DNA from: Phycisphaerales bacterium
Lineage (GTDB): Bacteria; Planctomycetota; Phycisphaerae; Phycisphaerales; UBA1924
Reading direction: 5' to 3'
DNA length: 52,275 nucleotides
Assembly (NCBI GenBank): GCA_041750235.1
Contig: JBGSZV010000258.1
Location: 1 to 52,275 of the forward strand
In this document: positions 198 through 39,059 of the stretch, piece after piece
Position numbering within the stretch: the stretch's first letter is position 1
How the letters are laid out: the number at the start of each line of letters is the position of its first letter
Position numbers and translations under genes: made by a program
The notes under the pieces: generated by a model
Databases searched by the model: none
Told to the model about the DNA's origin: nothing
What the model saw: only the letters and a program-made list of their open reading frames with translations

Positions 198-272
198 GGC
201 CCCATCGTCTAGCCCGGTCTAGGACGCCAGGTTCTCATCCTGGAAACCGGGGTTCGAATCCCCGTGGGGTCA
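198..272 (+). tRNA. tRNA-Glu (anticodon CUC), 75 nt, CCA not encoded
   Basis: Cloverleaf folded by hand. Acceptor GGCCCCA/TGGGGTC (one G-U), D stem GTCT/GGAC, anticodon stem CCAGG/CCTGG with loop TTCTCAT (anticodon CTC), T stem CGGGG/CCCCG with loop TTCGAAT, discriminator A. Confidence 0.9.
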
Positions 273-347
273 TTGTCCCTTGAGATAGATACGTACATAT
301 CCCCCGCCACGCGGGGACGTCGTATCTGTGGAATCAGCAATCGGCCA
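263..347 (+). repeat. Direct repeat copy R1: tRNA 3' end (cgtggggtca), 14-nt spacer, 41-nt hairpin (287-327), conserved right flank
   Basis: Hairpin AGATACG..CCCCGC-cac-GCGGGG..CGTATCT. The same layout recurs at 25205-25281 and 38986-39059. Confidence 0.85.
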
Positions 348-359
348 AGTCGCCGCAAG

Positions 360-403
360 CAGGCAGAGTTTGTCGTGCGAGAAACCCTGCCTGTTCTCGT
401 TTT
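360..403 (+). terminator. Possible intrinsic terminator (plus-strand orientation)
   Basis: Stem CAGGCAG(a)GTTT / AAAC(c)CTGCCTG with a 10-nt loop, followed by TTCTCGTTTT. Confidence 0.35.
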
Positions 404-406
404 GGA

Positions 407-2395
407 TCACGCCTTCACGGCGATCTGAACACTACACAAAGCTTGCGCATCTGATTTCGCGCCGCCCATCACGATCGGCACACGCCGGATGTGCAACTTC
501 GCCCTTCCCGTGTCGCGGTCGTAGTTGATCGATTCGACGCAGCGCCGGATCGCCGCCTGCCGTTCGTTCACCGCGCCCTCCTTCAACAGACCATCCAAGC
601 ACGCCACGAACCGTGCGGTGTCGTCGATCAGCGCCTTGATCTCCTCGCGACCGAGCGATGCGTGCTCCAGTTCATCCCGTTCGTGCTCCAGCAACTCACG
701 CTCGCGCTGGAGCTCCTTCAGCCGTGCGTCCACAGCCGCTCGGTTCCCCGCCGTGATGTTGTCGAGCAGGTTCCGAGTCGTGAGTTCGAGCTTGTTGATC
801 GCGTGCTCGATCTCCGCGCCGCGCTCAATCGCCCGCTCGCGTTCCGAGCCGATCGACTCCCCCACCGCTCCCGCCAACGCCTTGCGGCCGTGATCGCCCG
901 TGAACGGCTCGTAGGCCTTCAGGACGGCTCGGATTACCGCCTCCTCAATCGCCGCCTGCGGCACCGCACCCCGCTTGCAGACACTTCGACCCCGCCGGAT
1001 GTAGCCGCCGCAGGCGTAGCAGTAGCACTTGGCGCGTGGCGATCCGTCCTTGGGCTTCGCGCCGCTGGGATCGATACAACCCTCATAGCGACTCTGGCAA
1101 TGAGCGCACCGGATCAGACCCGACAGGAGGAACCGTGACCGAGGGCCGGTCCAACCGCCGGTCACCCGCTGATCCGACGTTGGATCCCCAGCGCTCGCGA
1201 TCGCGGCCTGCTGCATGAGTGCCTTCGCCTCATGGAACACGCGACGCGGCACCAGCGCGGGGTGAGCGTCTTGGGTCACCAGCCAGTCGGCCTCGTCGTT
1301 GGGTTCCAGCCGACGACCGTTCTTGCCTCCGATTGCCTTGCGTTCGATGGCTCGACCGTCGCCCGCGATGCGGAAGAATCGAGCATCAGTTCTTCGGTTC
1401 CACGCAAGGTCCCCCGAGTACGCCGGGTTGAGGAGGATGGCCCGGACCGTCGTCATCGCCCATTGCCCGCTGTAGTGGCCCGACCATTCCGGGCCACGCG
1501 CCGTCGGCACGCCCTTGCGATTGAGGTGGTCCGCGATGGCTTTCAGACCCTTGCGCTCCTCGACATAGAGCCGGAAGATCAGCTTGACGGTCTTCACCCG
1601 TTCCTTATCGCTGGGCACCAGCGTGCAGCGGTCGCGCTTCGAGACCGCGATGGATTCACCCCGAGCGAGGATGCGGACCGGTTCTCCCTTCTCGTTGAGC
1701 ATCTGCTTGGTGCCGTCGCGTTCGTACCGGAGGAAGAACAGGAACTGGCCGCTCTGGCTCTCATAGCAAAGGTCGAATCCGAACGGCGGTGCGCCGCCCA
1801 TCCAGAAGCCGCCCGCTTTGTCGCCGTTGGCGTGCTTGGCGATGGTCGCCTTGGAGACCAGCCCTCGGATCGCCACCTTGGCGAGGTCCTTGGACTCCTG
1901 CCGTGCCTGCCATTGCTTGACGGGACGGAGCAGGTCGTCGGTGCCGTCGCCGGTGAAGCCCTCGCTGGCGTAGTGGACCTCGACGCCTGATTGCCGCAGG
2001 AGATGCCTGTAGTAGCCCGCCTCGTCATTGCCGACACGCCCGAAGCGCTTCACGTCGTAGACCACCACGACGCTGAAGTCACAGCCAGGTGCGGCGGCGT
2101 CGGCCATCATCTGCTGGAAAGCCTTACGGCCGATCGTGCTGGTGCCGCTGATGGCGTCGTCGACGTAGCACCGGAGGAGCCGCAGGCCGTTCTCCTCGGC
2201 GTAGCGTTCGACAGCGCGCTTCTGGTCCGGGATCGACTGCTCCTGGCGGTCGGTGGATCGGCGCAGGTAGCCGACGGCACGAGTCGCACGGTGTGGCGTT
2301 GGGCCACGGCTGCGTGGTCGCTTGGATTCGCTGGCGTCAAACGGTAGGTCGCCGGTCTCGCCGTCCGTGATCTGGATGCTGGAATGTTTGCCCAT
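407..2395 (-). CDS. Large serine recombinase (resolvase/invertase N-terminal domain + recombinase domain + zinc ribbon + coiled coil)
   Basis: N-terminal YLRRSTDRQ catalytic-Ser motif, Cys-rich ribbon (CAHCQSRYEG...CYCYACGG) and a long C-terminal coiled-coil-like region. 662 aa. SD GAGGAGG lies upstream of the ATG. Confidence 0.9.
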   Translation of the reverse strand: MGKHSSIQITDGETGDLPFDASESKRPRSRGPTPHRATRAVGYLRRSTDRQEQSIPDQKRAVERYAEENGLRLLRCYVDDAISGTSTIGRKAFQQMMADAAAPGCDFSVVVVYDVKRFGRVGNDEAGYYRHLLRQSGVEVHYASEGFTGDGTDDLLRPVKQWQARQESKDLAKVAIRGLVSKATIAKHANGDKAGGFWMGGAPPFGFDLCYESQSGQFLFFLRYERDGTKQMLNEKGEPVRILARGESIAVSKRDRCTLVPSDKERVKTVKLIFRLYVEERKGLKAIADHLNRKGVPTARGPEWSGHYSGQWAMTTVRAILLNPAYSGDLAWNRRTDARFFRIAGDGRAIERKAIGGKNGRRLEPNDEADWLVTQDAHPALVPRRVFHEAKALMQQAAIASAGDPTSDQRVTGGWTGPRSRFLLSGLIRCAHCQSRYEGCIDPSGAKPKDGSPRAKCYCYACGGYIRRGRSVCKRGAVPQAAIEEAVIRAVLKAYEPFTGDHGRKALAGAVGESIGSERERAIERGAEIEHAINKLELTTRNLLDNITAGNRAAVDARLKELQRERELLEHERDELEHASLGREEIKALIDDTARFVACLDGLLKEGAVNERQAAIRRCVESINYDRDTGRAKLHIRRVPIVMGGAKSDAQALCSVQIAVKA

Positions 2396-6456: not shown

Positions 6457-8337
6457 TCAGGCCGCGATTCGCACCGTATCACATCCGTTTAGAGCGTTGA
6501 CGGCTGCAATGAATCGAGAAACGGGGGTCGGAGTGCTGAGCACCTGCCATTTCCGAGCGCCGATTGCGCCATCGTCCAAGACAACTTGGCCCGCCGGCGA
6601 CAGCATCAAAGTCGGTAGCTCTCTGACTCCAGCCTGCTGCTCCGCACTGACAAGTAGTTCAGCCAACACGCCGCGTTCCTTGGCAGCAGCGATATGAACT
6701 ACAGCAAGATTCGGTGGCTCTTCGCTCGTTGGTTCGGACAGTTCTCTACAGAAGATCCGATACGCATCAATCTCTGGAGCAGCGCTGACGTACAGAGGCC
6801 TGAACGGTACGGTCAACGTCGCTCGGAGTTGCTCAGATCGACGGGGCCAAGGCTCTCCGGTCGCATGCGACATCAGCGCGAACTTGGTGTCATCTGTCTG
6901 CTCTCGCGCCGACTCCTCAATCGCCCGGATCGTCGCGGGCGAAATGTTCAGAGCGCGGCAATGTTCCTCTGTCGGATACGTCGTCTCATTGCCGCTAGTT
7001 CCAAGGAGCATCGCGTGAGCAAGTCGATTGGCCAGACCCAGCCGCAGAATCTCCGACACCCGCGATGGCGCGACGCCTCGTACGTTCCCCGCAGAGAGGT
7101 GGTGGTACATGATCGGTTCCACCAAGTGCTTCGGGAACTTCCAGGCGTTCAACAACCGGTCCATCACGTCGGCGTGATTGAGGAGCAGCATGCGGGACTC
7201 GACCAACTCCAGCGGGGATTGGAGGCGTCGAGCAGTTTCAATGACCCGGATGTACTGGTCTCCCAACGCCTCGGCGAAGATGACTCGACCGAGGTCATGG
7301 AGCAGACCGCTCGTAAATGCGGAGTCCGCCTCAGTCGCGTTCGTAGCGTGAGCGATCTCCGCCGCGATAATGCCGCACGCAATCGAGTGCTCCCAGAACT
7401 GCGTCGTGCTCACATGCTCCTTAAACGCCGGCGAGTTGAAACGCTCGACGACGCCGATGTTCAGCACCGTCTGGCGGATGCTCTCCATGCCGATTCGAAG
7501 GATGGCCTTCTGAACGTTGTCCACGCGATCCCCGCGTGAGTACACAGACGAGTTGGCGATCTTCAGGATCTTGAGAGCCATCGCCTGGTCTTGCCTCACG
7601 GCTTTCGACACAGCCTCCAATGAACCTTTCGGGCTCGCGGTGAGCTTGAGGACTTGGGCAACCGTGGGCGAGAAACCCTTCAATTCCTCGCACGCCTTCA
7701 ATCGTTCCATGAGGTCCGAGCGGGTCAGGATCGGCTTCAAAGACTTGATGTCAATGGCGGCCGCGTTCTCACGCTCGCTCTCGGACAGACACCGCGCGAC
7801 GCACTGCTGCGCAGGCGGAACCATCGATGCCGCAGGCAACTCGTCGTTGCCAACGGGGGGAGCGACCTGCCGGGAGCCGGTCGATGGCGACATGGAGACT
7901 TTCGGAGTCTTCACCGGTGCTGCCGCAGCGGCGGTCGGCGCGGGAGCCGCATTCTCCGGCACAGCCGTGGCCGGGGCGAGCGTGGCCCGCACCTTTTCCA
8001 GCATTGCCCTGAGTGAGAAGCCGGACTTGAGCATGTAGCCAGAGATGCCGAGCTTCACTGCCTCGGTGATCTGAGCGCGGTCAGATTCGGCTGAGAGGAC
8101 GATCACCGGAGTCAGCCTGAGCAACGGGTTTGTGCGCAGCGTTCGCAGAAAAGTGAGGCCATCCATCACCGGCATCCCTAGGTCAAGAAGCACAAGCGAA
8201 GGCCTCGCCACCGAGATCGCGGCCAGCGCTTCTTGGCCGTTACACGCGCTTGTCGTCTCAAATCCCTCGGCGCGCAACACCGCCTCAATAGGTTCCCGGA
8301 ATATGGGCATGTCGTCCACGATGAGGATCGCCGCCAT
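6457..8337 (-). CDS. Response regulator receiver domain fused to an HDOD domain
   Basis: N-terminal REC (ILIVDDMP...VLLDLGMPVMDG...K). Central HDOD-like segment (TVAQVLKLTASPKGSLEAVSKAVRQDQAMALKILKIANSSVY...GLLHDLG). Confidence 0.85.
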   Translation of the reverse strand: MAAILIVDDMPIFREPIEAVLRAEGFETTSACNGQEALAAISVARPSLVLLDLGMPVMDGLTFLRTLRTNPLLRLTPVIVLSAESDRAQITEAVKLGISGYMLKSGFSLRAMLEKVRATLAPATAVPENAAPAPTAAAAAPVKTPKVSMSPSTGSRQVAPPVGNDELPAASMVPPAQQCVARCLSESERENAAAIDIKSLKPILTRSDLMERLKACEELKGFSPTVAQVLKLTASPKGSLEAVSKAVRQDQAMALKILKIANSSVYSRGDRVDNVQKAILRIGMESIRQTVLNIGVVERFNSPAFKEHVSTTQFWEHSIACGIIAAEIAHATNATEADSAFTSGLLHDLGRVIFAEALGDQYIRVIETARRLQSPLELVESRMLLLNHADVMDRLLNAWKFPKHLVEPIMYHHLSAGNVRGVAPSRVSEILRLGLANRLAHAMLLGTSGNETTYPTEEHCRALNISPATIRAIEESAREQTDDTKFALMSHATGEPWPRRSEQLRATLTVPFRPLYVSAAPEIDAYRIFCRELSEPTSEEPPNLAVVHIAAAKERGVLAELLVSAEQQAGVRELPTLMLSPAGQVVLDDGAIGARKWQVLSTPTPVSRFIAAVNALNGCDTVRIAA

Positions 8338-8590
8338 GAAGAAAGCATCGGCTCGCGGGGTTCCTTATTGAAGTTCCTGATCCCTGGCCGCAGGAGTTGC
8401 GTGTGGACACGCAACCGATTCCGGACGCAGTTCCCGACCGCCGAGTCTCATTTACCGTGTTCTGCTTGCGTAGACCGCCTGATGGCGGTTCATGTTTCAT
8501 AATCTGCGGGCGCTGAGGATCTTCGGAGCAGAACGTCCAGCGCGTGATAGCTCACAGCCCTATCATCATTGAGACTATTCAGCACCCCCG

Positions 8591-9022
8591 ATGAAGGTTC
8601 AACGCTCTGGAAGGTACGCGATGGCAGTCGGAAAGGAGTCGAGCAACAACACGGTTCCTTCAAGCCCCGGTGAGGTCGCTCGTCCGCATGTCGCAGGGCC
8701 CGGCGTGGTTTCGGTGCGCTTCAGCATCGAGGAGTTCGCCACACCGCCGGTCCGTGATGCGCTGGTGCTGGGGAGGCGGTCACCGGTCGGGTGTATGGCG
8801 CTGCGGAAGGCGCTGGCGTTTCTCCACACCGCTCCCTTTGTACACATAGAAGTCGATGATGACACGGTCGCCGATATCGTGGTCCGTGAGTCGATCGTGC
8901 GGATCGTCGGGCGCGAGAAGCTCATCGCGCTGGTCCTCCACCGCGTCAAGCCGCTGATGACCGATCTGGACATCCTGCATCTGGACATCGAGGCCAAGCT
9001 GCACCTGGAGGCGGAAGTCTAG
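8591..9022 (+). CDS. Hypothetical protein, in the same frame as the downstream kinase and separated from it by a single TAG
   Basis: The ORF ends at TAG 9020-9022. The kinase ATG at 9032 is in the identical frame. Confidence 0.3.
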   Translation: MKVQRSGRYAMAVGKESSNNTVPSSPGEVARPHVAGPGVVSVRFSIEEFATPPVRDALVLGRRSPVGCMALRKALAFLHTAPFVHIEVDDDTVADIVVRESIVRIVGREKLIALVLHRVKPLMTDLDILHLDIEAKLHLEAEV

Positions 9023-9031
9023 GCCACGGCT

Positions 9032-11293: not shown

Positions 11294-11946
11294 TGAGCAG
11301 CTTCTTTACGATTGTGTTCGCCGATGACCACCCGATCCTGCGGCAGGGACTTGAGGGGCAGTTCGCCGCCATGGAGGGGTTCACGGTCGTCGGCAGCGTC
11401 GGCGATGCCCAGTCGGCGGTAAACCTCTGCCGCGAGCGACGCCCGGATCTGCTGCTGCTGGATGTCGAGATGCCGGGGCGCGATGCGCTGGGGGCCATGA
11501 CCGACATCAAGGCGGTCAGCCCCGACACGCGGATCGTGATCTTTACCGCATTCTGCCGCGATCGGCTGATCGATCTGGCTATTGAAGGCGGGGCCGCTGG
11601 TTACCTGCTCAAGTCCGACTCTCCGCAGCACATCCTCGACGCACTGTCCAGAGTGATGAAGGGCGAGCGGGTGTACTCCAAGGATGTGCTGGCACGCCTC
11701 TCGCGATCGGGCCGTGAGGCGGACCATGGTGATGCTGGTGTGACGCTTCTCTCAACACTCAGCCCACGCGAGCTTGAGGTGCTCCGCTACATCGGCAAAG
11801 GCCAGGACAACGCCACGATGGCGGAGGCCATGCACCTCTCCATCCGGACCGTCGAGCGCCACGTATTGCGGCTGATGCGGCACATGCAGATCGACGACCG
11901 AACGCGCCTCACAGCGCTGGCGCACGAGTGCGGGCTGGTCTCCTGA
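11293..11946 (+). CDS. NarL/FixJ (LuxR-type HTH) response regulator
   Basis: ATGA overlap with the kinase stop. REC (FADDHPILRQG...LLLLDVEMPG) plus a C-terminal LuxR HTH (LSPRELEVLRYIGKGQDNATMAEAMHLSIRTVERH). Confidence 0.9.
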   Translation: MSSFFTIVFADDHPILRQGLEGQFAAMEGFTVVGSVGDAQSAVNLCRERRPDLLLLDVEMPGRDALGAMTDIKAVSPDTRIVIFTAFCRDRLIDLAIEGGAAGYLLKSDSPQHILDALSRVMKGERVYSKDVLARLSRSGREADHGDAGVTLLSTLSPRELEVLRYIGKGQDNATMAEAMHLSIRTVERHVLRLMRHMQIDDRTRLTALAHECGLVS

Positions 11947-12411
11947 ATACCGTCCTCCGGACACGATTGCGCAAGGACACGCAACAAGCCGCCTCAACCG
12001 AAGGGCGATACAAAGGGTGGCTCAGAAGCCGCGCGATTGTTGCTCCGTAGTCGCGTCAAATCCTCCGTGCCGCTGGTGGGGTTGTTCGTCCCACCATCGG
12101 TTTGTCTCTGTCCGCGCTGGAATCACCGCCCCTTCGCCCTCCGTCGCCCTCTGCGCGGCCGGAGGGTGGACGATCGATCAAGGAGACCGGAGTCGTGCCG
12201 CCATTGCTCCGACAGTCCGAAACCCACTCCGCTCCGGCCGGGCCTCACGCTCATCGATGTACGCAGCATGGCGTGCTGCGGGCGGCGCCGCATCTCGAAG
12301 CGCAGCACGAGTGGCTCGTGGGGCGCTCTTGCAAAGGCGAGGTTCGCCGCATCGATCATCCGAAGCATCATCAACAATGCGACGCGCGATGCAGGAAGAG
12401 CGGCGCCTGAG

Positions 12412-23720: not shown

Positions 23721-23728
23721 GGTGCACC

Positions 23729-24534: not shown

Positions 24535-24537
24535 GCC

Positions 24538-25204: not shown

Positions 25205-25281
25205 CGTGGGGTCACTTTCCCTCACAAGATACGCACCACATCCCGCCACCGCGGGATGTCGTATCTGCGCGCCAATCGTGC
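25205..25281 (+). repeat. Direct repeat copy R2: duplicated tRNA-Glu 3' end (cgtggggtca), 12-nt spacer, 40-nt hairpin (25227-25266)
   Basis: The 10-mer is identical to tRNA positions 263-272. Hairpin AGATACG..ATCCCGC-cacc-GCGGGAT..CGTATCT. Right flank contains caatcg. Confidence 0.85.
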
Positions 25282-25294
25282 TTGCCGCTCGAGA

Positions 25295-27118: not shown

Positions 27119-27277
27119 CGGATGACTCCTTCTTGAACTGGACTGTATTTCTGGACCTTTATATCCATTGTTAGCCTACCCAGTATCGGCATGCGGTCAA
27201 GTAAGGTCTTTATTCTTGCCGACCGTTTTAGTGGATATTGACATCCAGTTTTTAAGCCGTAGTCTCAACCCGGAGGC

Positions 27278-29284: not shown

Positions 29285-29372
29285 GCGGCCCTGCCCACCG
29301 GCTGGACCCTGAAAGTCCGATCACGGGCATCTCAGGCAGTTATCCACCGCCGCGAAACCTCAGGAATCGCTG

Positions 29373-29401
29373 TTGACTCCGACCCTTTGGGTCGATATAA
29401 C
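29373..29401 (+). promoter_or_regulatory. Candidate promoter for the cytochrome c - nosZ operon, with an inverted repeat in the spacer
   Basis: TTGACT - 17 nt - TATAAC. The spacer contains CCGACCC-TTT-GGGTCGA. Confidence 0.35.
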
Positions 29402-29464
29402 TATATACAACTCCAGTTATCTCTCATGCGACAGCGAAGGCTGGGCACTGACGGAGACCAAACA

Positions 29465-30421
29465 ATGCAGCTCGCACCAACCCCACGCCAGGCCGCGACC
29501 CTCCAAGCCGCCGTGCAGTGCGGTTCTACGCCAGCGTCCCGGGGTAGCGGACTCAGGGAATGCGGCATCGCCGCGCTCTGGGCCGTTCTGACAGCGGCCG
29601 TCATCGCCGCTCCCGGCGGGATTTCAATCTTCACTGATCTGCGCAACAAGGAGCGTGCCCGCCTCGCCGCCATCGAAGCCGCGCAGGCCTACGAACGCAT
29701 CGTCGCCGCTCCTGCGGCCGCGAGCCTTCCCCTCGAGCAGGCCGCCCATGGCCGCGATCTGTTCGCGACCACGTGCGTTGCCTGTCACGGCCCGACGGGC
29801 ACCGGTGTCACCGGGCTCGGCAAAAACCTCTGCGAGAGCGACTTCGTCGCCGCCACGAGCGATGCCGATCTCGTGCAGTTCATCATCACGGGCCGCGCCA
29901 CCGCCAACCCGCCCATGCCGCCGCGAGCCGGTCGTCCGGAACTCACCGATGCAGACATCGCAGACCTCGTCATCTACCTTCGCGGCCTGCAGGATGCACG
30001 GCGCATGCCCGAACTGCCGGAAATGGTGGTCGCCAAGGTGGAAGTCACCGCGGACGACAAAGCCAAGGCCCTCGAAGCCGCCGGCGGAGACGAGGAACTC
30101 GCGGGCTGGATCGCCAGCGGCAAGAAGATCTACGCCACGACCTGCATCGCCTGCCATGGACCCGACGGCACCGGTGTCAAGGGCAATGGCAAGCCGCTGA
30201 CGACCAGCGAGTTCGTCGCCTCGCTCAACGACGACGAACTCCTCGCCTTCATCTTGAAGGGTCGTGATCCGAGCGATCCAAAGAACACCACCGGCGTCGG
30301 CATGCCGCCCCGTGGCGGCAACCCAGCGCTCTCTGAGGACGATCTGCTCGACGTCATCTCTTACCTGCGTTCACTTCAGCTGGCCCAGACAGCCAAGCAG
30401 TCATCCGCATCAGCCAACTGA
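29465..30421 (+). CDS. Membrane-anchored diheme class I cytochrome c (NosC-like electron donor)
   Basis: Two CxxCH sites (CVACHGPTGTG, CIACHGPDGTG), each followed by a distal Met context (PPMPPR / GMPPRGG). One N-terminal TM helix. Confidence 0.8.
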   Translation: MQLAPTPRQAATLQAAVQCGSTPASRGSGLRECGIAALWAVLTAAVIAAPGGISIFTDLRNKERARLAAIEAAQAYERIVAAPAAASLPLEQAAHGRDLFATTCVACHGPTGTGVTGLGKNLCESDFVAATSDADLVQFIITGRATANPPMPPRAGRPELTDADIADLVIYLRGLQDARRMPELPEMVVAKVEVTADDKAKALEAAGGDEELAGWIASGKKIYATTCIACHGPDGTGVKGNGKPLTTSEFVASLNDDELLAFILKGRDPSDPKNTTGVGMPPRGGNPALSEDDLLDVISYLRSLQLAQTAKQSSASAN

Positions 30422-30481
30422 CCGTTCATGGCGCCGCGCTGCCGTGTGGAAGCGCCCCGCCCGAACCAAGGAGACCTCACC

Positions 30482-32578
30482 ATGACACGCGCCCCCCGGA
30501 ACAGGGCCGTACTCTCGATGCTCACACTCTCGCTCGCCGCGGGGGCTGTCTTGCAAGCAACGGCGCCCGATGCCATCGCGCAAACGGAAGGCCGACGTCG
30601 TCGAAGCTCGTCTCAGGAAGCAAAGCCCGTCGAGCTCACCGCCGAGCAAGTCGGCATGCTCACCAAGCTCGCCAACGAGCGCAAGCTCAACGTCGATGAC
30701 CTCATGGCCGCCGCCAAGACGTACCTCCCCAGCGGACGCCACGACGAATACGTCCTCTTCTCCTCGGGCGGCCAGAGCGGCCAGATCTTCGCGATCGGCG
30801 TCCCCAGCATGCGCCTCCTGCGCTCGATCGCCGTCTTCACCCCTGAATCCTGGCAGGGCTACGGATTCGCCGGCATGGATGACCCTGTCCTCGAGCAGCT
30901 CAAGATCAATGACAAGCTCGTCGCCTGGGGCGATACCCACCATCCGGCGCTCTCGGAAACCAACGGCGAGTACGACGGCCAGTTCCTCTTCATCGGCGAC
31001 AAGGCCAACGCACGCCTGGGCATCATCGATCTGCGCGACTGGGAAACCAAGCAGATCGTCAAGAACCCGCTCACCATCAGCGACCACGGCGCTGCGTTTG
31101 TGACGCCCAACACTGACTACATCGTCGAGGGCGGCCAGTACGCGACCGTCCTGGGCTACGGCTACGCGCCGCCCGAGGAGTACCAAAAGTCCTACCGCGG
31201 CATGGTCACCCTCTGGAAGTTCGATCGCGCCAAGGGCCGCGTAGACACCGCCAAGTCCTTCGCGATCGAACTCCCGCCCTACTGGCAGGACCTTGCCGAC
31301 GCGGGCAAAAACGCCAGCGACGGCTTCATCTTCATCAACTCCTTCAACACCGAGATGGCTGTTGGCGGCATCGAGAAGGGCAACCCGCCCTTCGAGGCCG
31401 GGGCCAGCAAGCGCGACATGGACTATCTCCACATCATCGACTGGAAGAAGGCCGAGCAGGCCTTCGCCGCCGGCAAAGCCAAGATGATCAACGGCTTCCC
31501 CGTGCTCCCGCTCGAAATCACATCCGCCGAGGGCATTCTCCACTTCACACCCGAGCCCAAGAGCCCGCACGGCGTCGATGTCACCCCCGACGGCAAGTTC
31601 ATGGTCGTCGCCGGCAAGCTCGACCCCCACGTCACCGTTTACTCCATCGACAAGATCAAGTCAGCCATCGCCGAGAAGAAGTTCAGTGGTACGGACGCCT
31701 ACGGCGTTCATATCCTGGATTTCGACTCGGTCCGCGAAGCACAGGTCGAACTCGGCCTTGGCCCGCTGCACACCCAGTTCGATGACAAGGGCTACGCATA
31801 CACATCGCTCTTCCTTGACTCTGCCGTTGCACGCTGGAGCTTGGGCGGTGACTACGCCAAACTCCACAGCGAGCAGCCGTGGAAGCTCGTGCACAAGACG
31901 CCCGTTCAGTACAACATCGGCCACCTCTGCGCCGCCGAAGGCGATACCACCACCCCAGACGGTCGCTTCCTGATCTCGATGTCCAAGTGGTCGGTCGACC
32001 GTTTCCTCAACACCGGCCCCCTGCTCCCGCAGAACTTCCAGCTCCTCGACATCGCCGCGCCGGGAACCACCATGCCGGTGATCTACGACCTCCCCATCGG
32101 CGTCGGCGAGCCCCACTACTGCCAGATGATCAAGGCCGACAAACTCAAGACCTGGAACGTCTACCCCGAGGTCGGCTGGAACCCGCACACGCAGATGCTC
32201 GATCCACGCTCGCCCAAGAAGGGACAAGAAGGCGTGGTGCGCGACGGCAACAAGGTCACCGTCAACATGACCGCCATCCGCAGCCACTTCAATCCTGAGC
32301 ACGTCGAGGTCAACCAGGGCGATGAGGTCACATGGCGCATCGTGGCCATGGAGACCACACCCGACGCCACCCACGGCTTCTGCATCGGCGCGTACAACAT
32401 CAACCTCTCCCTGGAGCCCGGCGAGTTCACCGAGTTCAAGTTCATCGCAGACGAGCCCGGAACCTATCCCTTCTACTGCACCGAATTCTGCTCCGCGCTG
32501 CACCTTGAAATGATGGGCTATCTGCACATCAAGCCGACGGCCGCGCAGTCGTCCGCTTCCAATCCCTCAGACAACTGA
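30482..32578 (+). CDS. nosZ: Nitrous-oxide reductase NosZ, Sec-type (clade II) signal peptide
   Basis: Beta-propeller body (HGVDVTPDGKFMVVAGKLDPHVTVY) and CuA motif FYCTEFCSALHLEMMGY. The signal peptide MTRAPRNRAVLSML lacks a twin-Arg motif. AAGGAG SD. Confidence 0.93.
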   Translation: MTRAPRNRAVLSMLTLSLAAGAVLQATAPDAIAQTEGRRRRSSSQEAKPVELTAEQVGMLTKLANERKLNVDDLMAAAKTYLPSGRHDEYVLFSSGGQSGQIFAIGVPSMRLLRSIAVFTPESWQGYGFAGMDDPVLEQLKINDKLVAWGDTHHPALSETNGEYDGQFLFIGDKANARLGIIDLRDWETKQIVKNPLTISDHGAAFVTPNTDYIVEGGQYATVLGYGYAPPEEYQKSYRGMVTLWKFDRAKGRVDTAKSFAIELPPYWQDLADAGKNASDGFIFINSFNTEMAVGGIEKGNPPFEAGASKRDMDYLHIIDWKKAEQAFAAGKAKMINGFPVLPLEITSAEGILHFTPEPKSPHGVDVTPDGKFMVVAGKLDPHVTVYSIDKIKSAIAEKKFSGTDAYGVHILDFDSVREAQVELGLGPLHTQFDDKGYAYTSLFLDSAVARWSLGGDYAKLHSEQPWKLVHKTPVQYNIGHLCAAEGDTTTPDGRFLISMSKWSVDRFLNTGPLLPQNFQLLDIAAPGTTMPVIYDLPIGVGEPHYCQMIKADKLKTWNVYPEVGWNPHTQMLDPRSPKKGQEGVVRDGNKVTVNMTAIRSHFNPEHVEVNQGDEVTWRIVAMETTPDATHGFCIGAYNINLSLEPGEFTEFKFIADEPGTYPFYCTEFCSALHLEMMGYLHIKPTAAQSSASNPSDN

Positions 32579-32664
32579 CACCGCAGCGTCCGCGCCGAGC
32601 GAAAGCCCCGCGCGGGCATTGATCCGCACATTCAGGTCGCAACAACGGTGCAAGGAAACCACCC

Positions 32665-33339
32665 ATGTCCCGCATCGCAAACTATCTCATCGGCCCGCGA
32701 ATTCCTCTGGAAGAACTCCAGGCTCATCGCTGGCGATACCTCACACCCACGTTCATCCTCATGCTCGCGCGTGTCCTCCTGCTCCTTTCAATTTTCCTTC
32801 CCTACTGGCACATGGAGCTCGAAGCTCCGCAGTACCCCAACGGCCTGTTTCTCACCGCGTACGTCAATCACCTGCAGGGCGATGTCAAGGAGATCGACGG
32901 CCTCAACCACTACATCGGCATGCGTCCGCTCGAACAGGCCGCCGCGTTCGAGCGGGCCGCTTCGGTGTGGCTGATCGTCGCCATGTTCCTTCTCGTTGAA
33001 GGCGCGGCATTCATTCACAGCAAGTGGGCCGTGCTCCTCGCACTTCCCGCCGTCGGCTTCCCCGCCGGCTTCCTCGTGGACCTCCACTTCTGGATGAAGA
33101 CCTTTGGCCAGAACCTCGACCCCTCGGCGCCGCTGTCGGCGTCCGTCAAGCCGTTTATCCCAACCGTACTCGGCGAGGGAGGCATCGGACAGTTCAAGAC
33201 CTACGCGGACCTCGGATGGGGCTACTGGCTTGCCGTGGGCTGTGCCGTCCTGACCATCATCGGCTTTGTCTTCCACCGTCGCGCGTATCGCCCGCTCTAC
33301 CTCAGGACTCTCCGCGAATCGGCCGCCGGTGTCGCATGA
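32665..33339 (+). CDS. NosB-like integral membrane protein (clade II nos accessory)
   Basis: Multi-TM protein located directly between nosZ and nosD. ATGA coupling to nosD. Confidence 0.6.
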   Translation: MSRIANYLIGPRIPLEELQAHRWRYLTPTFILMLARVLLLLSIFLPYWHMELEAPQYPNGLFLTAYVNHLQGDVKEIDGLNHYIGMRPLEQAAAFERAASVWLIVAMFLLVEGAAFIHSKWAVLLALPAVGFPAGFLVDLHFWMKTFGQNLDPSAPLSASVKPFIPTVLGEGGIGQFKTYADLGWGYWLAVGCAVLTIIGFVFHRRAYRPLYLRTLRESAAGVA

Positions 33340-34772
33340 ACACGCGAAACTTCCCCATTCACTGCTTTTCGCTTCTGCTCGCGCTGGCAGGTTCCAACCC
33401 TGTGCTCGCCCAGGAGCACGCCGCGCCCACCTCCATCGCGCCGCGTCCAGCATCACTGCCACTCGGCCAGATCGGGCGCCGCATCGAAGCCGCGCCGGAG
33501 GGATCCATCATCACCGTCGAACCCGGCATCTACCGTGAGCACCTTCGAATCACAAAGCCAATCACCCTTCGCGCACGTCCCGGCGCGGTGATCGACGGCG
33601 ACGGAAGCGGCGACATCATCGAAATCACCGCGCCGGATGTCATCATCGACGGCTTCACCATCCGCAATACCGGCATTGACCTCGACCAGGAGAACGCCGC
33701 CATCCGCGCGCTCGCCCCGCGGGTCACCATCGAGAACAACACCCTCGAAGACATCCTCTTTGGCATCGACCTCCGCGAAGCACCCGGCAGTGTCATCCGC
33801 GGAAATCGCATCGGAGGCAAGAACCTCGATTCAGCACGCCGCGGTGACGGCCTCCGCCTCTGGCGCTCCGACGACACCATCGTCGAGTCCAACACCATCC
33901 ACGACGGACGCGACGCCATCCTCTGGTACTCCAAGGGTGTGACTGTCCGCAACAATACCGTCCATGACAGCCGCTACGGCCTGCACCTCATGTACAGCGA
34001 CGATGTGCGGATCGAGGGCAACCGGCTGACCGCCAACTCCGTAGGCGTGTACCTCATGTACAGCGCGGGCGTGGAACTCCGCCACAACATCCTCATCCGC
34101 AACCGCGGGCCCAGCGGCTACGGGATCGGCCTCAAGGAAACGGACCGATTCACTGTCTCGGACAACCTCATCTCCGGCAACCGCGTCGGCATCTACATCG
34201 ATGGCTCGCCCTTCACTGACAAGCAGCCCGGACTCTTCAGGGGCAACACCCTCGCCTTCAACGACATCGGCATCACCTTCCTCCCGTCGGCCAAAGGCAA
34301 CCTCCTCGCAGGCAACAACTTTGTAGACAACATCGATCAGATCAGCGTCGCGGGACGCGGCAATCTCGATGCGAATCAGTTCTGGGATGGCGAGCGCGGG
34401 AACTTCTGGAGCGACTACACCGGGTACGACCTCAACGGTGATGGCGTCGGCGACTTCGTTCACGAATCCCAGACGCTCTTCGAGAACCTGCTCGACCGCG
34501 AACCCCGCCTTCGTCTGTTCCTCTTCAGCCCCGCGCAGCAAGCGATCGAGTTCGTCGGACGCGCCGTTCCCGCGATCCGCCCAGAGCCCAAGTTCACGGA
34601 CGAGGTCCCTCTCATGCACCCCGTCCCGATCGACATACCGGGCGTCGCTCAAGGCCGTCGATCCTGGTCCATGCTCGGCGCGAGTGCGGCGCTCCTTGTT
34701 CTCGGAGCCTTGATCACATGCATCGGACGCGGCCCAGCCTTCTGCAAGTCACGCAACGGAGCCACTCCATGA
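33336..34772 (+). CDS. nosD: NosD, periplasmic parallel beta-helix copper-processing protein
   Basis: Signal peptide, then repeated beta-helix units (IENNTLEDILFGIDL, VRNNTVHDSRYGLHLMYS, IEGNRLTANSVGVYLMYS, ISGNRVGIYID). Confidence 0.88.
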   Translation: MNTRNFPIHCFSLLLALAGSNPVLAQEHAAPTSIAPRPASLPLGQIGRRIEAAPEGSIITVEPGIYREHLRITKPITLRARPGAVIDGDGSGDIIEITAPDVIIDGFTIRNTGIDLDQENAAIRALAPRVTIENNTLEDILFGIDLREAPGSVIRGNRIGGKNLDSARRGDGLRLWRSDDTIVESNTIHDGRDAILWYSKGVTVRNNTVHDSRYGLHLMYSDDVRIEGNRLTANSVGVYLMYSAGVELRHNILIRNRGPSGYGIGLKETDRFTVSDNLISGNRVGIYIDGSPFTDKQPGLFRGNTLAFNDIGITFLPSAKGNLLAGNNFVDNIDQISVAGRGNLDANQFWDGERGNFWSDYTGYDLNGDGVGDFVHESQTLFENLLDREPRLRLFLFSPAQQAIEFVGRAVPAIRPEPKFTDEVPLMHPVPIDIPGVAQGRRSWSMLGASAALLVLGALITCIGRGPAFCKSRNGATP

Positions 34773-35668
34773 TCCAGATCCACCAGGTCACGCGGAAGTT
34801 CGGTCGGGCCCGTGCCGTGGACAACCTCTCGCTCGACATCCCCGCCGGCGCCAGCGTCGCGCTCTGGGGCGCCAATGGCGCCGGAAAGACCACGCTCATT
34901 CGCTGCGTCCTTGGCCTGCTCCGATTCAAGGGACGCATCACTGTTGGCGGGCACGACGTGACGCGTCACGGCAAGGCCGCGCGCATGCTCATCGGCTATG
35001 TGCCCCAGGAACTCGGCTTCTACGACGACCTCCGCGCCGCCGAGTCGCTCCGATTCTTTGGACGACTCAAGGGACTGAACACACATTCGTCCAGTGAGTC
35101 GCTCGCCCGGGTCGGCTTGGAGGGGCAGGACCACAAGCGGATCCGCGAACTCTCGGGCGGCATGAAGCAGCGCCTCGCGCTCGCCATCGCCATGCAGGGG
35201 GATCCGCCCGTGCTCGTGCTCGACGAAGTCACCGCCAGCCTCGACGCCTGCGGCCGCGCGGAGTTCATCCGGCTCCTCTCCAGGCTCTCGAACGACGGCC
35301 GCACGATGCTCTTTGCGTCCCATCGCATCGAAGAAGTCAGCACGCTCGCGTCACGCGTCATCCTCTTTGAGAAAGGACGCATCCAAGACCAGTGCGCCTC
35401 CCACGAACTTGCCGATCGCATCGGCTCCTCCTCGATTCTGCACCTGGTCCTCCAGCCGCCGGTGCGCGAACTTGCCATGACCGCACTCCGCACCGGCGGC
35501 TTCTCCCCGCGGATGAACGGCGTGGGGATCGTCGTCCCCGTACCCGCCGAGCAGAAGGCCGCACCCTTCCGGCTCCTCGCCGAAGCACGGATCACCATCG
35601 ACGACTTCGAGCTCATGGCCGCCGGGGCTGAACACACCAGCCACCCTCGCATGGAGGCCGCCCAATGA
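34769..35668 (+). CDS. nosF: NosF, ABC transporter ATPase
   Basis: Walker A GANGAGKTT, signature LSGGMKQRL, Walker B VLVLDE. ATGA overlaps on both sides. Confidence 0.88.
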   Translation: MIQIHQVTRKFGRARAVDNLSLDIPAGASVALWGANGAGKTTLIRCVLGLLRFKGRITVGGHDVTRHGKAARMLIGYVPQELGFYDDLRAAESLRFFGRLKGLNTHSSSESLARVGLEGQDHKRIRELSGGMKQRLALAIAMQGDPPVLVLDEVTASLDACGRAEFIRLLSRLSNDGRTMLFASHRIEEVSTLASRVILFEKGRIQDQCASHELADRIGSSSILHLVLQPPVRELAMTALRTGGFSPRMNGVGIVVPVPAEQKAAPFRLLAEARITIDDFELMAAGAEHTSHPRMEAAQ

Positions 35669-36540
35669 CCGCGCTCTCAACGACGCTTGTGACTCATGCA
35701 CGCCCGCCCTCGGCGATCCGCAACATTCGAACCATCGCCGGCCGCGAGCTTCGCGAGAGCCTCCGCAGCCGCTGGTTCATCCTCTACACAATCGCATTCG
35801 CGGTGCTAGGTCTGGGCATTTCATTCGTCTCCGCAGCCGGCGCGGGCGGGCTCGGGCTCTCAGGCTACGGCCGCACAACCGCCGGTCTCATCAATCTGGT
35901 GCTCCTGGTCGTGCCGCTCATGGCGCTCACCGCCGGCGCAGGCTCCATCGCCTCCGATCGCGAGCGGGGCATGCTCCCCTATCTCCTCGCCCAGCCGCTC
36001 GCCCGCTTCGAACTCCTGCTCGGCAAGTATCTGGGACTCGCCGCGGCGCTGGCCGCCTGTCTGTCCCTCGGCCTTGGCGCGTGCGCCGGCATCCTCGCAT
36101 GGAAGGGCGGCGGCTCGCAGCCCGCCGCGATGCTCTGGCTCGCCGGTCTTTCACTCTTGCTCGCGCTGGGCATGCTCAGTGTGGGAATGCTCATCTCAAC
36201 GCTCGCTCGCCGAGCGTCCATGGCCATCGGAGTCGCCATCTTCCTCTGGCTCGCGCTGGTCTTCGTGAGTGATCTTGCCCTCATGGCCGGCGCGATCGCA
36301 ATGCGGTTCCGCATCGAAGAACTCTTCGCCCTCAGCCTCGTCAATCCGCTTCAGGTCTTCAAGATGTGGTCGCTCCACGCGGTGGACGCGACCCTCGACG
36401 TCCTCGGACCCGCCGGTCTGTACGCCATGGACGAGTACGCCGACCGGCTCCACCTCATCTTCGGCGCCTGCCTCGCGGTGTGGATCTTCCTCCCGCTCGC
36501 GCTCGCCGTCGTCGTCTTCTCTCGGAGGTCGCCGTTATGA
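35665..36540 (+). CDS. nosY: NosY, ABC-2 type permease
   Basis: Six predicted TM segments, positioned between nosF and nosL. Confidence 0.85.
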   Translation: MTALSTTLVTHARPPSAIRNIRTIAGRELRESLRSRWFILYTIAFAVLGLGISFVSAAGAGGLGLSGYGRTTAGLINLVLLVVPLMALTAGAGSIASDRERGMLPYLLAQPLARFELLLGKYLGLAAALAACLSLGLGACAGILAWKGGGSQPAAMLWLAGLSLLLALGMLSVGMLISTLARRASMAIGVAIFLWLALVFVSDLALMAGAIAMRFRIEELFALSLVNPLQVFKMWSLHAVDATLDVLGPAGLYAMDEYADRLHLIFGACLAVWIFLPLALAVVVFSRRSPL

Positions 36541-37061
36541 ACCGCCGATCCCTACTCCGGCTGTCCGCCGTCGCTCTTTGCTTGCTTCCAACACTGCTCC
36601 TGGCCGGCGGCTGCGACCGCGCCGAACTCAACGGCCCGCCCGATCTTCGCGTCGGGCGCGACGAGTGCGGTGAATGCGGCATGATCATCAACGAGGACCG
36701 CTGCTCCTGTGCCTTTCTCATCGAGCGCGAGGGCGTTCGCGAACACGTCATGTTCGACGACATTGGTTGCCTGCTCGACTTCGAGCACCAGTCCAACGAG
36801 GGAGTGCGAATCATCGACGGCTTCGTCCGTGATCACGCCTCCCGCGCCTGGGTTCCGGTCGATACCGCCGCCTTCCTGATGGCCGACCGCGAGATCCTCA
36901 AGACGCCGATGGGCTCGGGGATCGTCGCCTTCGGCACGCGCGCGGACGCCCAATCGCTGCGAGCGAGCGTCGGCGGCGAGATCCTCGACTACCAGCAACT
37001 CCGACCGGCACGCCGCGCTTGGATGGAAGCCCGCTTCGGCAAGGAACGTCCAGCATCGTGA
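36537..37061 (+). CDS. nosL: NosL, copper-chaperone lipoprotein
   Basis: Lipobox LLAGGC, CGECGM motif, and a MGSGIVAF segment typical of NosL. Confidence 0.8.
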   Translation: MNRRSLLRLSAVALCLLPTLLLAGGCDRAELNGPPDLRVGRDECGECGMIINEDRCSCAFLIEREGVREHVMFDDIGCLLDFEHQSNEGVRIIDGFVRDHASRAWVPVDTAAFLMADREILKTPMGSGIVAFGTRADAQSLRASVGGEILDYQQLRPARRAWMEARFGKERPAS

Positions 37062-37089
37062 TGCGATGATGCAGCACCGGAGGTGAAAC

Positions 37090-37569
37090 ATGCTCTCCCA
37101 GACAGTCGAGTACGCACTGCGGGCCATGATCTACCTCGCTTCTTTCGGCGATTCGGCCGTCAACTGCGAAACCCTCTCCGGTCAGACACGCGTCCCCGCC
37201 GGCTATCTCTCCAAGGTCATGCGCGATCTGGTCTGCGCCAACCTCGTTCGCTCCTACCGCGGGCCGCACGGCGGATTCACAATCGCTCGCCATCCGGACA
37301 CCATCTCTCTTCTTGACGTGGTGAACGCCGTGGACCCAATCCACCGTATCGGGAGCTGCCCCCTCGACAACCCCCTCCATTCAACGCTCTGTCCCTTGCA
37401 CAAGCGCCTCGACGACGCCATCGAGCACGTCGAACGCACGTTCCGTGAAACCTCTCTCGGCTCCGTGCTCTCCGGCCCCGGCGGCACGGGCGCCTGCAAA
37501 GCCCTCTTTCCCTCCCGCCCAACCGCACGACCGAACGCAGGAGAGCCCAGCAATGACAACCACCATTGA
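37090..37569 (+). CDS. Rrf2-family transcriptional regulator (paralog 1)
   Basis: MLSQTVEYALRAMIYLA...GYLSKVMRDL winged HTH. Cys cluster SCPLDNPLHSTLCPLH. Confidence 0.85.
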   Translation: MLSQTVEYALRAMIYLASFGDSAVNCETLSGQTRVPAGYLSKVMRDLVCANLVRSYRGPHGGFTIARHPDTISLLDVVNAVDPIHRIGSCPLDNPLHSTLCPLHKRLDDAIEHVERTFRETSLGSVLSGPGGTGACKALFPSRPTARPNAGEPSNDNHH

Positions 37570-38293
37570 TCCAACCGTCACACTGGCCGACCTGACCGCT
37601 TGCCATCCCGAGCTCATTCCGCTCTTGCAGCGCCTTCGTCTTGATTACTGTTGCGGCGGCGCTCAGCCGCTTGAATCAGCCTGCCTCCGACGTGGGCTGG
37701 TATTCAGCGACGTATGCAACCAGCTCCATCTCGCGATGAACCCGCGCGAACAGCCGGCCCTCCGCAACTGGCAGGACGCCTCAATGACCGCACTGGCCGA
37801 TCACATCGAGGCCACGCATCACGCCTTCGTACGAACGAGCATGGAGTCTCTCAAGGCGCTGGCTGAGAAGGTCGCTGCGGCCCACGCCGAGAATCATCCG
37901 GAACTGAAGGAACTCCGCGGGCTCATCGCCCTGCTTGATGCCGACATGCACGATCACATGATCCGCGAGGAGCGCGTGCTCTTCCCCTGGCTCCGTCGGC
38001 TTGAGCGTCCAACCGAGATCACCAGCGGCCCGCCGTGGAGCGTCAAACGACCCATCGACTGCATGGTCCACGACCACGACGATGTCGCCGACCTGCTCCG
38101 TCAGATCCGCGGCCTGACCCATGACTTCACGCCGCCCCCTGACGCCTGCGGCGCCTTCCGCGCCCTCCTGTCACTCCTTGCCAACTTCGAAGCCGACACC
38201 CACACTCACATCCACCTCGAGAACAACATCCTCTTCCCCGCCGGCTTGCGTGCCGAGCAGGACCAACAGCAAGGGAAGGGCAACGCGCAATAA
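37553..38293 (+). CDS. Repair-of-iron-centres di-iron protein (RIC; ScdA/YtfE family)
   Basis: ScdA_N motif (LRLDYCCGG) plus hemerythrin-like His/Glu motifs (HHAFV, HMIREERVLFPW, HDHDD, HIHLENNILFP). The internal ATG at 37553 has an AGGAG SD. Confidence 0.85.
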   Translation: MTTTIDPTVTLADLTACHPELIPLLQRLRLDYCCGGAQPLESACLRRGLVFSDVCNQLHLAMNPREQPALRNWQDASMTALADHIEATHHAFVRTSMESLKALAEKVAAAHAENHPELKELRGLIALLDADMHDHMIREERVLFPWLRRLERPTEITSGPPWSVKRPIDCMVHDHDDVADLLRQIRGLTHDFTPPPDACGAFRALLSLLANFEADTHTHIHLENNILFPAGLRAEQDQQQGKGNAQ

Positions 38294-38367
38294 CCACCGT
38301 CCCCTGGTTTGCCGGACATCCGGATACACTTCTCCCGTTCTACCACCGCCTCCCCCGGAAACCGGAC

Positions 38368-38823
38368 ATGCTCTCACAGACCGTCGAATACGCGCTGCGC
38401 GCCATGGTCCATCTCGCCACCCTGGAGCCCGGCGGCACCGCCAACAGTGAAACCATCTCCCAGCGAACCCAAGTCCCTCAGGGCTACCTCTCCAAGGTTC
38501 TGCGCGATCTCGTCGTCGCCGGGCTGATCAGGTCGCAACGCGGGCCCAACGGCGGCTTCGCACTTGACATCGAACCCTCTCGCATCTCGATGCTCGACGT
38601 CGTCAATGCCGTGGATCCCTTCAAACGCATTCACTCCTGCCCCCTCGGCAACCCGGCACACGTGAAGCTCTGTCCACTGCACCAGCGAATCGACGATGCC
38701 CTCGACCTCATCGAGAAGCAGTTCGGACGCACGATGCTCTCAGAAGTGATCGAAACAAAGGCCCGCACTGGCGGTCAGTGCAGTTCACTCCTCAGCCCGA
38801 CCATCCGAGGCCGGAAGCACTGA
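38368..38823 (+). CDS. Rrf2-family transcriptional regulator (paralog 2)
   Basis: MLSQTVEYALRAMVHLA...GYLSKVLRDL. Cys cluster SCPLGNPAHVKLCPLH. Confidence 0.85.
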   Translation: MLSQTVEYALRAMVHLATLEPGGTANSETISQRTQVPQGYLSKVLRDLVVAGLIRSQRGPNGGFALDIEPSRISMLDVVNAVDPFKRIHSCPLGNPAHVKLCPLHQRIDDALDLIEKQFGRTMLSEVIETKARTGGQCSSLLSPTIRGRKH

Positions 38824-38985
38824 ACCACAGAATGCGCCATTGGCTCGGGACCTTTGCGATGCGTTTGGGAGCTGCCAGTCACTCCACAGCCATGTGACTC
38901 AGGCTGGTTGACACACCCCGGGGCCCCTGGAAGTAGCCGACACGCCGGCGCCCAAGTCTCGGCGTCCGACGACGAGCCCGGGCTC

Positions 38986-39059
38986 ATCGTGCCTTGAACA
39001 AAGTACGCCCTTATCCCCCGGCACGAGGGGGACGTCGTACTTATGGGCTCAGCAACCGG
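38986..39059 (+). repeat. Direct repeat copy R3 (most diverged): atcgtg..ccttga remnant, 42-nt hairpin (39001-39042), conserved right flank
   Basis: Hairpin AAGTACG..TCCCCC-ggcacga-GGGGGA..CGTACTT. The right flank atgggctcagcaaccgg matches R1 gtggaatcagcaatcgg at 13 of 17 positions. Confidence 0.75.

Follow-up and report, generated by a model that had tools for sequence, protein, structure and literature searches.

A probable tandem array of two integrative islands at a tRNA-Glu(CUC) gene of a Phycisphaerales bacterium

The SCC and SCCmec elements of staphylococci are integrated at the 3′ end of rlmH/orfX by the large serine recombinases CcrAB and CcrC. Tycheposons of Prochlorococcus mostly use tyrosine recombinases (910 of 937), and a minority has a large serine recombinase (bioRxiv 10.1101/2020.12.28.424599). 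The stretch of DNA analysed here, called the window in the following, is the entire 52,275-nt contig JBGSZV010000258.1 of a Phycisphaerales bacterium (assembly GCA_041750235.1; G+C 58-68%). It carries a tRNA-Glu(CUC) gene, three direct repeats (R1 to R3) that include copies of the tRNA 3′ end, a single gene for a large serine recombinase (LSR) and, between R2 and R3, a segment without recombinase which contains a nos gene cluster. We consider it likely that two integrative islands were inserted in tandem at the 3′ end of tRNA-Glu(CUC) by members of a planctomycete LSR family. As in SCC, the recombinase gene is found at the 3′ end of a conserved gene and direct repeats bound the elements; further traits of SCC that the proposed array would share are regeneration of the target upon integration, tandem stacking, and cassettes without a recombinase, which in SCC can be moved in trans. 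In contrast to SCC, the target is a tRNA end with its downstream region and not a protein-coding gene, the host belongs to another phylum, the repeats are longer (~80 nt) and contain a hairpin, and a motif of the distal attachment-site arm (P arm) is found ~25-45 nt from the core.

The tRNA-Glu gene (198-272, forward strand; anticodon CTC in the DNA) is the sole tRNA gene found in the window by ARAGORN and Rfam (RF00005, 58 bits). A first-pass annotation of this DNA had reported three direct copies of its 3′ end, each with a downstream hairpin, and these are real. When R1 was compared to the whole window by blastn, R3 (75% identity over 84 nt with 1 gap, E=1.2e-12) and R2 (75.8% over 66 nt, E=4.5e-5) were found and there was no notable match beyond these two. 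A profile made from the three copies has exactly 3 matches in the window, and not one of 100 shuffled sequences gave a chance match to the hairpin pattern. All three repeats consist of a tRNA-end copy, a spacer of 12-14 nt, a hairpin of 40-42 nt and a short flank with CAATCG or CAACCG.

R1 (263-347, forward strand) is interpreted as an attL-type junction. It starts with the last 10 nt of the tRNA (cgtggggtca, 263-272), continues with a 14-nt spacer and a 41-nt hairpin (287-327), and contains a GAGA box, GAGATAGATA, at 282-291, which is conserved in the LSR family. Its flank gtggaatcagcaatcgg, which includes GCAATCGG, ends at position 344 and not at 347 as initially annotated; the tRNA end, spacer and hairpin had been described correctly. 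R2 (25205-25281, forward strand), the junction between islands 1 and 2, has an intact copy of the 10-nt tRNA end, CGTGGGGTCA, which is the identity block common to R1 and R2, and in addition a degenerate GAGA box, a hairpin (25227-25266) and CAATCG. R3 (38980-39059, forward strand), an attR-type junction, has a degenerate GAGA box, a hairpin (39001-39042) with compensated stem changes, and a flank which equals that of R1 at 13 of 17 positions. The initial coordinates and readings of R2 and R3 hold, but the left part of R3 had to be realigned and extends further left. Over 28 ungapped positions, GGGCTCATCGTGCCTTGAACAAAGTACG of R3 (38980-39007) is identical to GGGGTCATTGTCCCTTGAGATAGATACG of R1 (266-293) at 20. 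As this alignment starts from GGGCTCA (38980-38986), R3 retains a decayed tRNA 3′ end. A direct repeat of the tRNA 3′ end, as characteristic for tRNA-associated islands, is thus intact at R2 and decayed at R3. The core-to-core distances are 24,942 nt (R1 to R2) and ~13,772 nt (R2 to R3), where island sizes of ~24.9 and ~13.7 kb had been proposed.

The LSR gene (407-2395, reverse strand) is intact, codes for 662 aa and is convergent with tRNA-Glu. Its stop codon is 135 nt from the tRNA end and ~60 nt from R1, so that the recombinase gene is indeed next to R1, as had been noted. The protein has the Pfam domains Resolvase (the catalytic domain, PF00239, E=8e-23), Recombinase (PF07508, E=8e-20) and Zn_ribbon_recom (PF13408, E=1e-10), the latter two being C-terminal, and its catalytic motif, Y43-x-R45-R46-S47-T48-D49-R50-Q51, is invariant among 30 homologues. 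By domains and motif it is a member of the serine integrases, and attP x attB recombination with a 2-bp staggered crossover is predicted for it. No Phage_integrase domain was found in the window by Pfam.

At a threshold of E<=1e-20, 787 homologues of the LSR were found, nearly all from Planctomycetota/Phycisphaerae. We compared 80 LSR loci from species-representative genomes. In 26 of these, a tRNA-Glu (12) or tRNA-Met (14) gene is found downstream of the LSR stop codon, always in convergent orientation and in 11 cases within ~300 nt. With about 1 tRNA gene expected per 100 kb of genome, so many cases amount to a very strong enrichment. Among the closest homologues, P0003 (63% identity) and P0005 (58%) each abut tRNA-Glu. 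In locus L042, the tRNA is identical to that of the window, the flank upstream of it is homologous to window positions 26-103, and the island at this tRNA carries an LSR and a methylase which are homologous to those of island 1.

In a more distant clade of the same LSR family (43-51% identity; L047, L054, L070, L076, L078, L081 and others), the gene is convergent with tRNA-Met(CAT). Some of these genes end 0-10 nt from the tRNA or overlap with it, and the junction cores of this clade end with ...CCCCGCTACCA. A second partial copy of the attachment site is found in L012 (9822-9847 and 9957-9982), L070 (12175-12210 versus 12388-12423) and L057 (18583-18613 versus 18782-18812), at a distance of 135-215 nt from the tRNA-adjacent copy; in L012 it takes in part of the T arm. 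These second copies may be scars of elements that have been excised or deleted.

From 19 aligned LSR-adjacent sites, the consensus GGGGTC.TT.T..TT.GAGA..GATA.G...C.TATC was obtained, which R1 fits exactly. It is followed by a GC-rich hairpin that is variable in sequence, with the pairing preserved. Sites that are not directly adjacent to an LSR gene have a degenerate box; these are R2, R3, the corresponding junction in L088 (a relative described below) and the tRNA-proximal sites of L058 and L063.

A P arm is found directly left of R2, at the distal end of island 1 (25151-25204, forward strand). It contains the motif AAGGGTGACACAACCGCCACC (25160-25180), after which comes ...CGTCCGCCTATGAT; its sequence is AAAAGGGTGACACAACCGCCACC...CGTCCGCCTATGAT, or in short form AAAGGGTGACAAAACCGCCACC...CTATGAT. 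The same P arm is found left of the tRNA-end mimic at sites which lack a tRNA gene, namely in L001 (which carries the closest LSR homologue, 66%), L029 and L088, and a variant of it is found in L003-L006, L008, L020, L065 and L074. At all these loci except L088, the P arm is located just beyond the LSR stop codon. The order at the tRNA-less sites is P arm, core, GAGA box, hairpin and LSR, a layout which could equally represent an intact attP or a junction between stacked elements. The motif (A)AGGGTGACAAAACCGCCACC occurs at 25160-25180 in the window, 11718-11738 in L001, 12377-12397 in L029, 5614-5634 in L088 and 12106-12126 in L065. Both in the tRNA-Glu and in the tRNA-Met subfamily, the P-arm motif (TGACAAAACCGCCACC) is conserved ~25-45 nt left of the tRNA-end mimic, and this distance is too great for a standard serine-integrase half-site. 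Should islands stack in the way of the far-reaching scenario given below, the distal motif TGACAAAAC(C)GCCACC would be expected to act as an accessory site, used either by the recombinase or by its directionality factor.

Two contigs carry a pair of LSR copies, L005/L006 at a distance of ~56 kb and L008/L011 at ~42 kb, and by computed coordinates a P-arm junction adjoins the more distal LSR of each pair (L006 and L008). Such an arrangement would arise if each element ended at the start of its neighbour, and from these coordinates we infer tandem stacking on both contigs. L029 and L071 are paralogous elements from one genome, L029 with a P-arm junction and L071 at tRNA-Glu, which share 96.6% identity over 87 nt of core and hairpin. 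A search for direct repeats in the 10 kb upstream of each related LSR did not reveal island far ends; the related islands are probably longer than the flank which had been fetched.

A decayed P arm of island 2 is proposed left of R3 (38939-38979, forward strand). It reads GACAC-GCCGGCGCC...CGTCCGACGACGAGCCC, is colinear with the P arm of R2, and is aligned to the latter as GACAC-GCCGGCGCC...CGTCCGACGACGAGCCCGGGCTCA. The local alignment score of the two regions (25151-25204 versus 38939-38979) is 12, compared to 6.7 +/- 1.26 for random windows (p ~0.003). The 30-mers ending at the core agree at 20 of 30 positions, a match that is not reached anywhere else in the window on either strand. An nhmmer search with the P-arm profile did not recover the left flank of R3, so that this weak match was found by direct pairwise alignment alone. 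Because a decayed P arm, core and hairpin are colinear, R3 is organised like the right end of an island that has decayed. The short left flank "(t)(g/c)atcgtg", which had been regarded as common to R2 and R3, is thus actually an arm of ~50 nt according to the pairwise alignment.

Relative L088, whose cytochrome has 80% identity, is colinear with window positions 24688-27049 and onward to nosZ, and has the same R2 junction. Left of the core, identity is high for the ImmA-like gene (91%; 77% at third codon positions) and for the P arm (83%), and the core itself is identical at 10/10 positions. To the right, identity falls to 54% in the right part of R2 and is 76% for the cytochrome gene (58% at third positions). 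This break in similarity at 25205-25225 indicates that R2 joins DNA segments of different histories, and that the crossover occurred at or just after the tRNA-end copy; together with the 10-nt identity block it bounds the crossover position. Two other positions were considered for the crossover. One to the right of the hairpin was rejected because the break is at the core and not after the hairpin, and one in the hairpin loop was rejected because the two arms of each hairpin covary as a unit.

Island 1 (273-25204, ~24.9 kb) and island 2 (25282-38938, ~13.8 kb core to core) differ in composition. The GC skew of island 2 (-0.138) is like that of the flank (-0.156), and island 1 has a value of only -0.001, so that island 1 is compositionally distinct from the flank and island 2 is not. 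The same split between island 1 and island 2/flank is seen at third codon positions, whatever the strand of the gene, which indicates a replication-strand bias and not an effect of codon use. Since it lacks the chromosomal skew, island 1 looks recent, while island 2, which shares the skew of the flank, looks old and long resident. The cumulative GC skew is flat over island 1 and then falls steadily from ~25 kb to the contig end. The multihaem cytochrome gene (25295-27118) is the only gene of island 2 without host-type third-position skew. R3 had been taken as the older junction in the first-pass annotation, and this agrees with the decay of its core, P arm and GAGA box and with the host-like skew of island 2.

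Island 2 has no recombinase gene, and tblastn detected no LSR remnant beyond 2.5 kb of the window. It contains a clade II (Sec-type) nosZ gene (~30482-32578), assigned by Pfam and by the names of its homologues, which have 79-84% identity and are called "Sec-dependent nitrous-oxide reductase" in their sources. The features of a clade II nos cluster are present: a nosZ with cupredoxin and propeller domains, nosD, nosF and nosY, an accessory cytochrome and Fe-S proteins; a nosL gene was not detected in the window. The gene order of the nos cluster is the same in L090, L092 and L094. In three other lineages of Phycisphaerae, the nos clusters have different neighbourhoods and flanks, and no att-like repeat, P arm or tRNA-Glu was found there. 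As judged from these neighbourhoods, this shows that the position of the cluster is variable, not that it is moved by the att-site route.

We propose the following model. The attP would have three parts, a distal P arm, a short mimic of the tRNA 3′ end and a proximal P′ arm with GAGA box and hairpin, the latter adjoining the stop codon of the recombinase gene. Crossover would take place within the final 10 nt of the tRNA or immediately 3′ of these (263 to ~283), so that the tRNA would retain its own 3′ end, the native downstream hairpin would be exchanged for the GAGA box and hairpin of the island, and the P arm would land at the far side of the island. If the P′ arm is like the native downstream sequence, the tRNA-proximal junction would stay target-like, and a second element could enter there and displace the first one outward. 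According to this model, the P arm of island 2 would meet the original chromosomal flank at R3, the P arm of island 1 would be fused at R2 with what was once the proximal end of island 2, and at R1 the tRNA would be followed by the proximal end of island 1. The nos island 2 would have been integrated first, and would then have lost its recombinase, acquired the host skew and suffered decay of its sites; island 1 would have arrived later. From its sequence, island 1 looks able to excise.

The integration interpretation is strongly supported for island 1, because the LSR family is convergent with tRNA ends, a P arm is present at R2, similarity to L088 breaks at the core, and the skew differs. 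For island 2 integration is plausible, and it may have been mobile. The serial integration next to the tRNA gene that had been proposed in the first-pass annotation is thus supported in part. Mobilization of island 2 in trans by the recombinase of island 1 now seems unlikely, given the degenerate GAGA boxes at R2 and R3. A more far-reaching scenario is that the attP of this LSR copies the tRNA end and supplies the hairpin, that each integration recreates the target, that islands can stack indefinitely at tRNA-Glu and tRNA-Met genes, and that neighbours without a recombinase, such as the 13.8-kb nos module, may still be moved as a unit by the resident recombinase; this we regard as possible but rather unlikely.

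Several points weigh against a two-island array. Island 2 has neither a recombinase nor a remnant of one, its skew is host-like and its junction boxes are degenerate; thus, it may no longer be a discrete mobile unit, or may never have been one. The P-arm match at R3 is modest (p ~0.003). Serine integrases need only a 2-bp crossover and sites of ~40-50 bp. The similarity of ~80 nt, which runs through the hairpin and the GCAATCGG flank, would exceed the needs of this chemistry and would demand the extra assumption that P′ arms are descended from, or mimic, the native region downstream of the tRNA. To our knowledge, characterised serine integrases do not normally recombine attP with an attL-like site. 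The R2 junction is already present in L088, so that it would be old, or would have been inherited or transferred as a block. Finally, no empty site, single-island site or circular junction was found in the collections searched, which also have no entry identical to the LSR or nosZ product of the window; in a metagenome scan with the histidine kinase of the flank (41785-43293), the closest homologue had 41% identity, no empty site was obtained, and L084 was uninformative.

These points bear on the alternative that only island 1 is a true island, that the nos region belongs to the ancestral chromosome beside tRNA-Glu and has never been cargo, and that R3 is a segmental copy or the scar of a mostly deleted older element. 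It would explain the flank-like GC skew of island 2 and the absence of a recombinase remnant, the fact that L088 shares the nos cluster, its cytochrome neighbour and the R2 junction, and the near-universal occurrence of nosZ in Phycisphaerae with 79-84% conservation. However, the P arm, tRNA-end copy and hairpin of R3 are in the right order and orientation, so that the DNA between the tRNA and R3 has been inserted, barring a later rearrangement, and the nos clusters of the three other lineages have different flanks. We therefore judge this alternative to be unlikely.

Distinctly unlikely, in our view, is that the whole 38.8 kb entered as a single composite element bounded by R1 and R3, R2 being an internal attP-like junction that had formed in an earlier host, as in composite SCC. 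That the same R2 junction exists in L088, that attP-like junctions within long contigs are common in this LSR family, and that R1 is closer to R3 than to R2 would all fit. Nevertheless, the two halves differ sharply in GC skew and in third-position identity to L088 (77% versus 58%), both of which point to different residence times, and the P arm and core of R3 are far more decayed than those of R2. A tandem array of two islands, integrated at different times, remains the reading that we prefer.

The hairpins of all three repeats fold, and the covariation of their stems between the copies seems to point to selection for pairing. Rfam detects only the tRNA in the window and no RNA family for the hairpin. 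A scan for intrinsic terminators in window positions 1-600 found none, the hairpins being without a T-run. In L058 and L063, a hairpin is found 3′ of tRNA-Glu with no adjacent LSR, and is followed by TTTT. The hairpin might serve as a replacement 3′ structure for the tRNA or as an insulator between the convergent transcripts of tRNA and LSR. That we are dealing with a generic terminator, or with a dispersed REP-like element as considered in the first-pass annotation, the copies of which would be unrelated to integration, is highly improbable and largely refuted: GC-rich hairpins do follow many tRNA genes, L058 and L063 among them, but the window has just 3 copies, matches of the hairpin profile in 1.29 Mb of related loci are confined to tRNA-Glu ends and island junctions, the repeat copies take in the tRNA end and flanks outside the hairpin, and there is neither an Rfam family nor a terminator-like T-run.

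Other described systems resemble the array in part. With tycheposons it shares integration at a tRNA gene, neighbours which are separated only by a partial tRNA copy, newcomers which push older elements deeper into the island, degenerate remnants, and cargo for nutrient and energy metabolism (bioRxiv 10.1101/2020.12.28.424599). In contrast, many tycheposons carry replication modules (primases, helicases), and no replication-type Pfam domain (primase, helicase, polymerase) was found in island 1 or island 2, so that the locus is not assigned to the tycheposons. Also, the part of the tRNA that is copied here is only ~10 nt long, and the rest of the repeat is downstream of the tRNA. In tRNA islands and integrative and conjugative elements with tyrosine integrases, such as P4-type islands and ICEclc, the tRNA 3′ end is likewise duplicated at the borders, the integrase gene is located beside the tRNA, elements accrete in tandem and distal repeats decay. 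Here, however, the recombinase is from another family, its gene is convergent with the tRNA, and the tRNA identity block comprises 10 nt. The serine integrases of phages phiC31, Bxb1 and TP901-1 have the same three-domain architecture and catalytic serine motif, with the gene beside attP, but mostly target protein-coding genes and use minimal sites of ~40-50 bp that share few bases, whereas at the locus described here attL and attR are similar over ~80 nt and attL seems to be usable again as a target. That islands accumulate in tandem at tRNA genes and that their distal repeats decay is well known, and this locus is a clear example of the phenomenon, not a fundamentally new one. What is likely to be new, on the basis of the sequence comparisons, is the delineated site architecture for a serine-recombinase family of planctomycetes.

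Just 5′ of tRNA-Glu, a consensus scan found a promoter-like site, TTGACG-16-TAGACT (157-184, forward strand), which is a pattern match only. According to Pfam and PADLOC, the cargo of island 1 consists, besides the LSR, of a type II-like N6/N4 DNA methylase, a two-component signalling cluster, a CHAT protein, E1(ThiF)/E2-like genes and a CapH/CapP-like pair of a helix-turn-helix (HTH) protein and a metallopeptidase. The signalling cargo (6457-18014) is unusually large and includes an HDOD response regulator, a CBS-PAS histidine kinase, a LuxR response regulator, an Hpt protein, a receiver-HD protein and a hybrid kinase of 1,503 aa with several PAS and two receiver domains. At the right end of the island, an XRE HTH gene (24103-24534) and an ImmA-type metallopeptidase gene (24538-25074; PADLOC capP, E=7e-35) form the CapH/CapP-like pair, which is divergent from the E1(ThiF)/E2-like operon (22065-24022, reverse strand). 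The latter adjoins the gene for the 978-aa CHAT-domain protein (19068-22004). Judged by these genes, the region 22065-25074 looks like a regulated ubiquitin-like or defence module.

In island 2, the multihaem cytochrome (25295-27118, reverse strand) has a C-terminal dockerin-like domain according to Pfam. The other genes code for a Fer4/TPR protein, a dihaem cytochrome c, NosZ, NosD, NosF, NosY, an Rrf2 protein, a ScdA/hemerythrin protein and a second Rrf2 protein. The window and L088 are the only cases in which the multihaem cytochrome gene adjoins nos genes. In other Phycisphaerae, its homologues with 64-65% identity (L089, 10001-11827; L096, 10001-11833) are located between genes of the beta-eliminating lyase and succinate dehydrogenase types; in the contexts of homologues P0123 and P0124, which have succinate dehydrogenase and beta-eliminating lyase genes, neither nos genes nor a nearby tRNA-Glu was found. 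The two paralogous Rrf2 genes (37088-37433 and 38366-38714) are direct repeats with 70-85% identity at a distance of 1,278-1,281 nt, with the ScdA/hemerythrin gene between them where the nos module ends distally; a single Rrf2 gene is found at this position in L092 and L094. In these two genomes of other Phycisphaerae, the distal nos end is followed by a mobile-element gene, which in L092 is a tyrosine integrase (19623-21329) beside tRNA-Leu (19801-19885), and L094 has HARE-HTH, DUF2924 and a different serine recombinase at 19298-22091.

On the right side of R3, the window continues with small stress-type genes and with genes for a two-component pair, sigma factors, a kinase and an aldehyde dehydrogenase. 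The region directly adjacent to R3 (39060-41750) has a lower GC content (58-60%), with the small stress-type genes, among them a DUF892/YciF-like gene at ~40450-40928 and genes for small membrane proteins. The long ORF 39783-40928 is probably assigned a wrong start, as DUF892 covers only residues 223-379.

The LSR family to which the recombinase belongs is large, uncharacterised and widespread in Planctomycetota, where it targets the ends of tRNA-Glu and tRNA-Met genes. If serine integrases with natural targets at tRNA ends and reusable sites are confirmed, these would be of practical interest as integration tools. The occurrence of a complete clade II N2O-reductase cluster in DNA bounded by attachment sites raises the question if the capacity to act as a sink for N2O is moved between Phycisphaerae on islands. 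If stacking is true and if the nos module has moved as a unit, nitrous-oxide reduction would be a horizontally mobile trait among Phycisphaerae.

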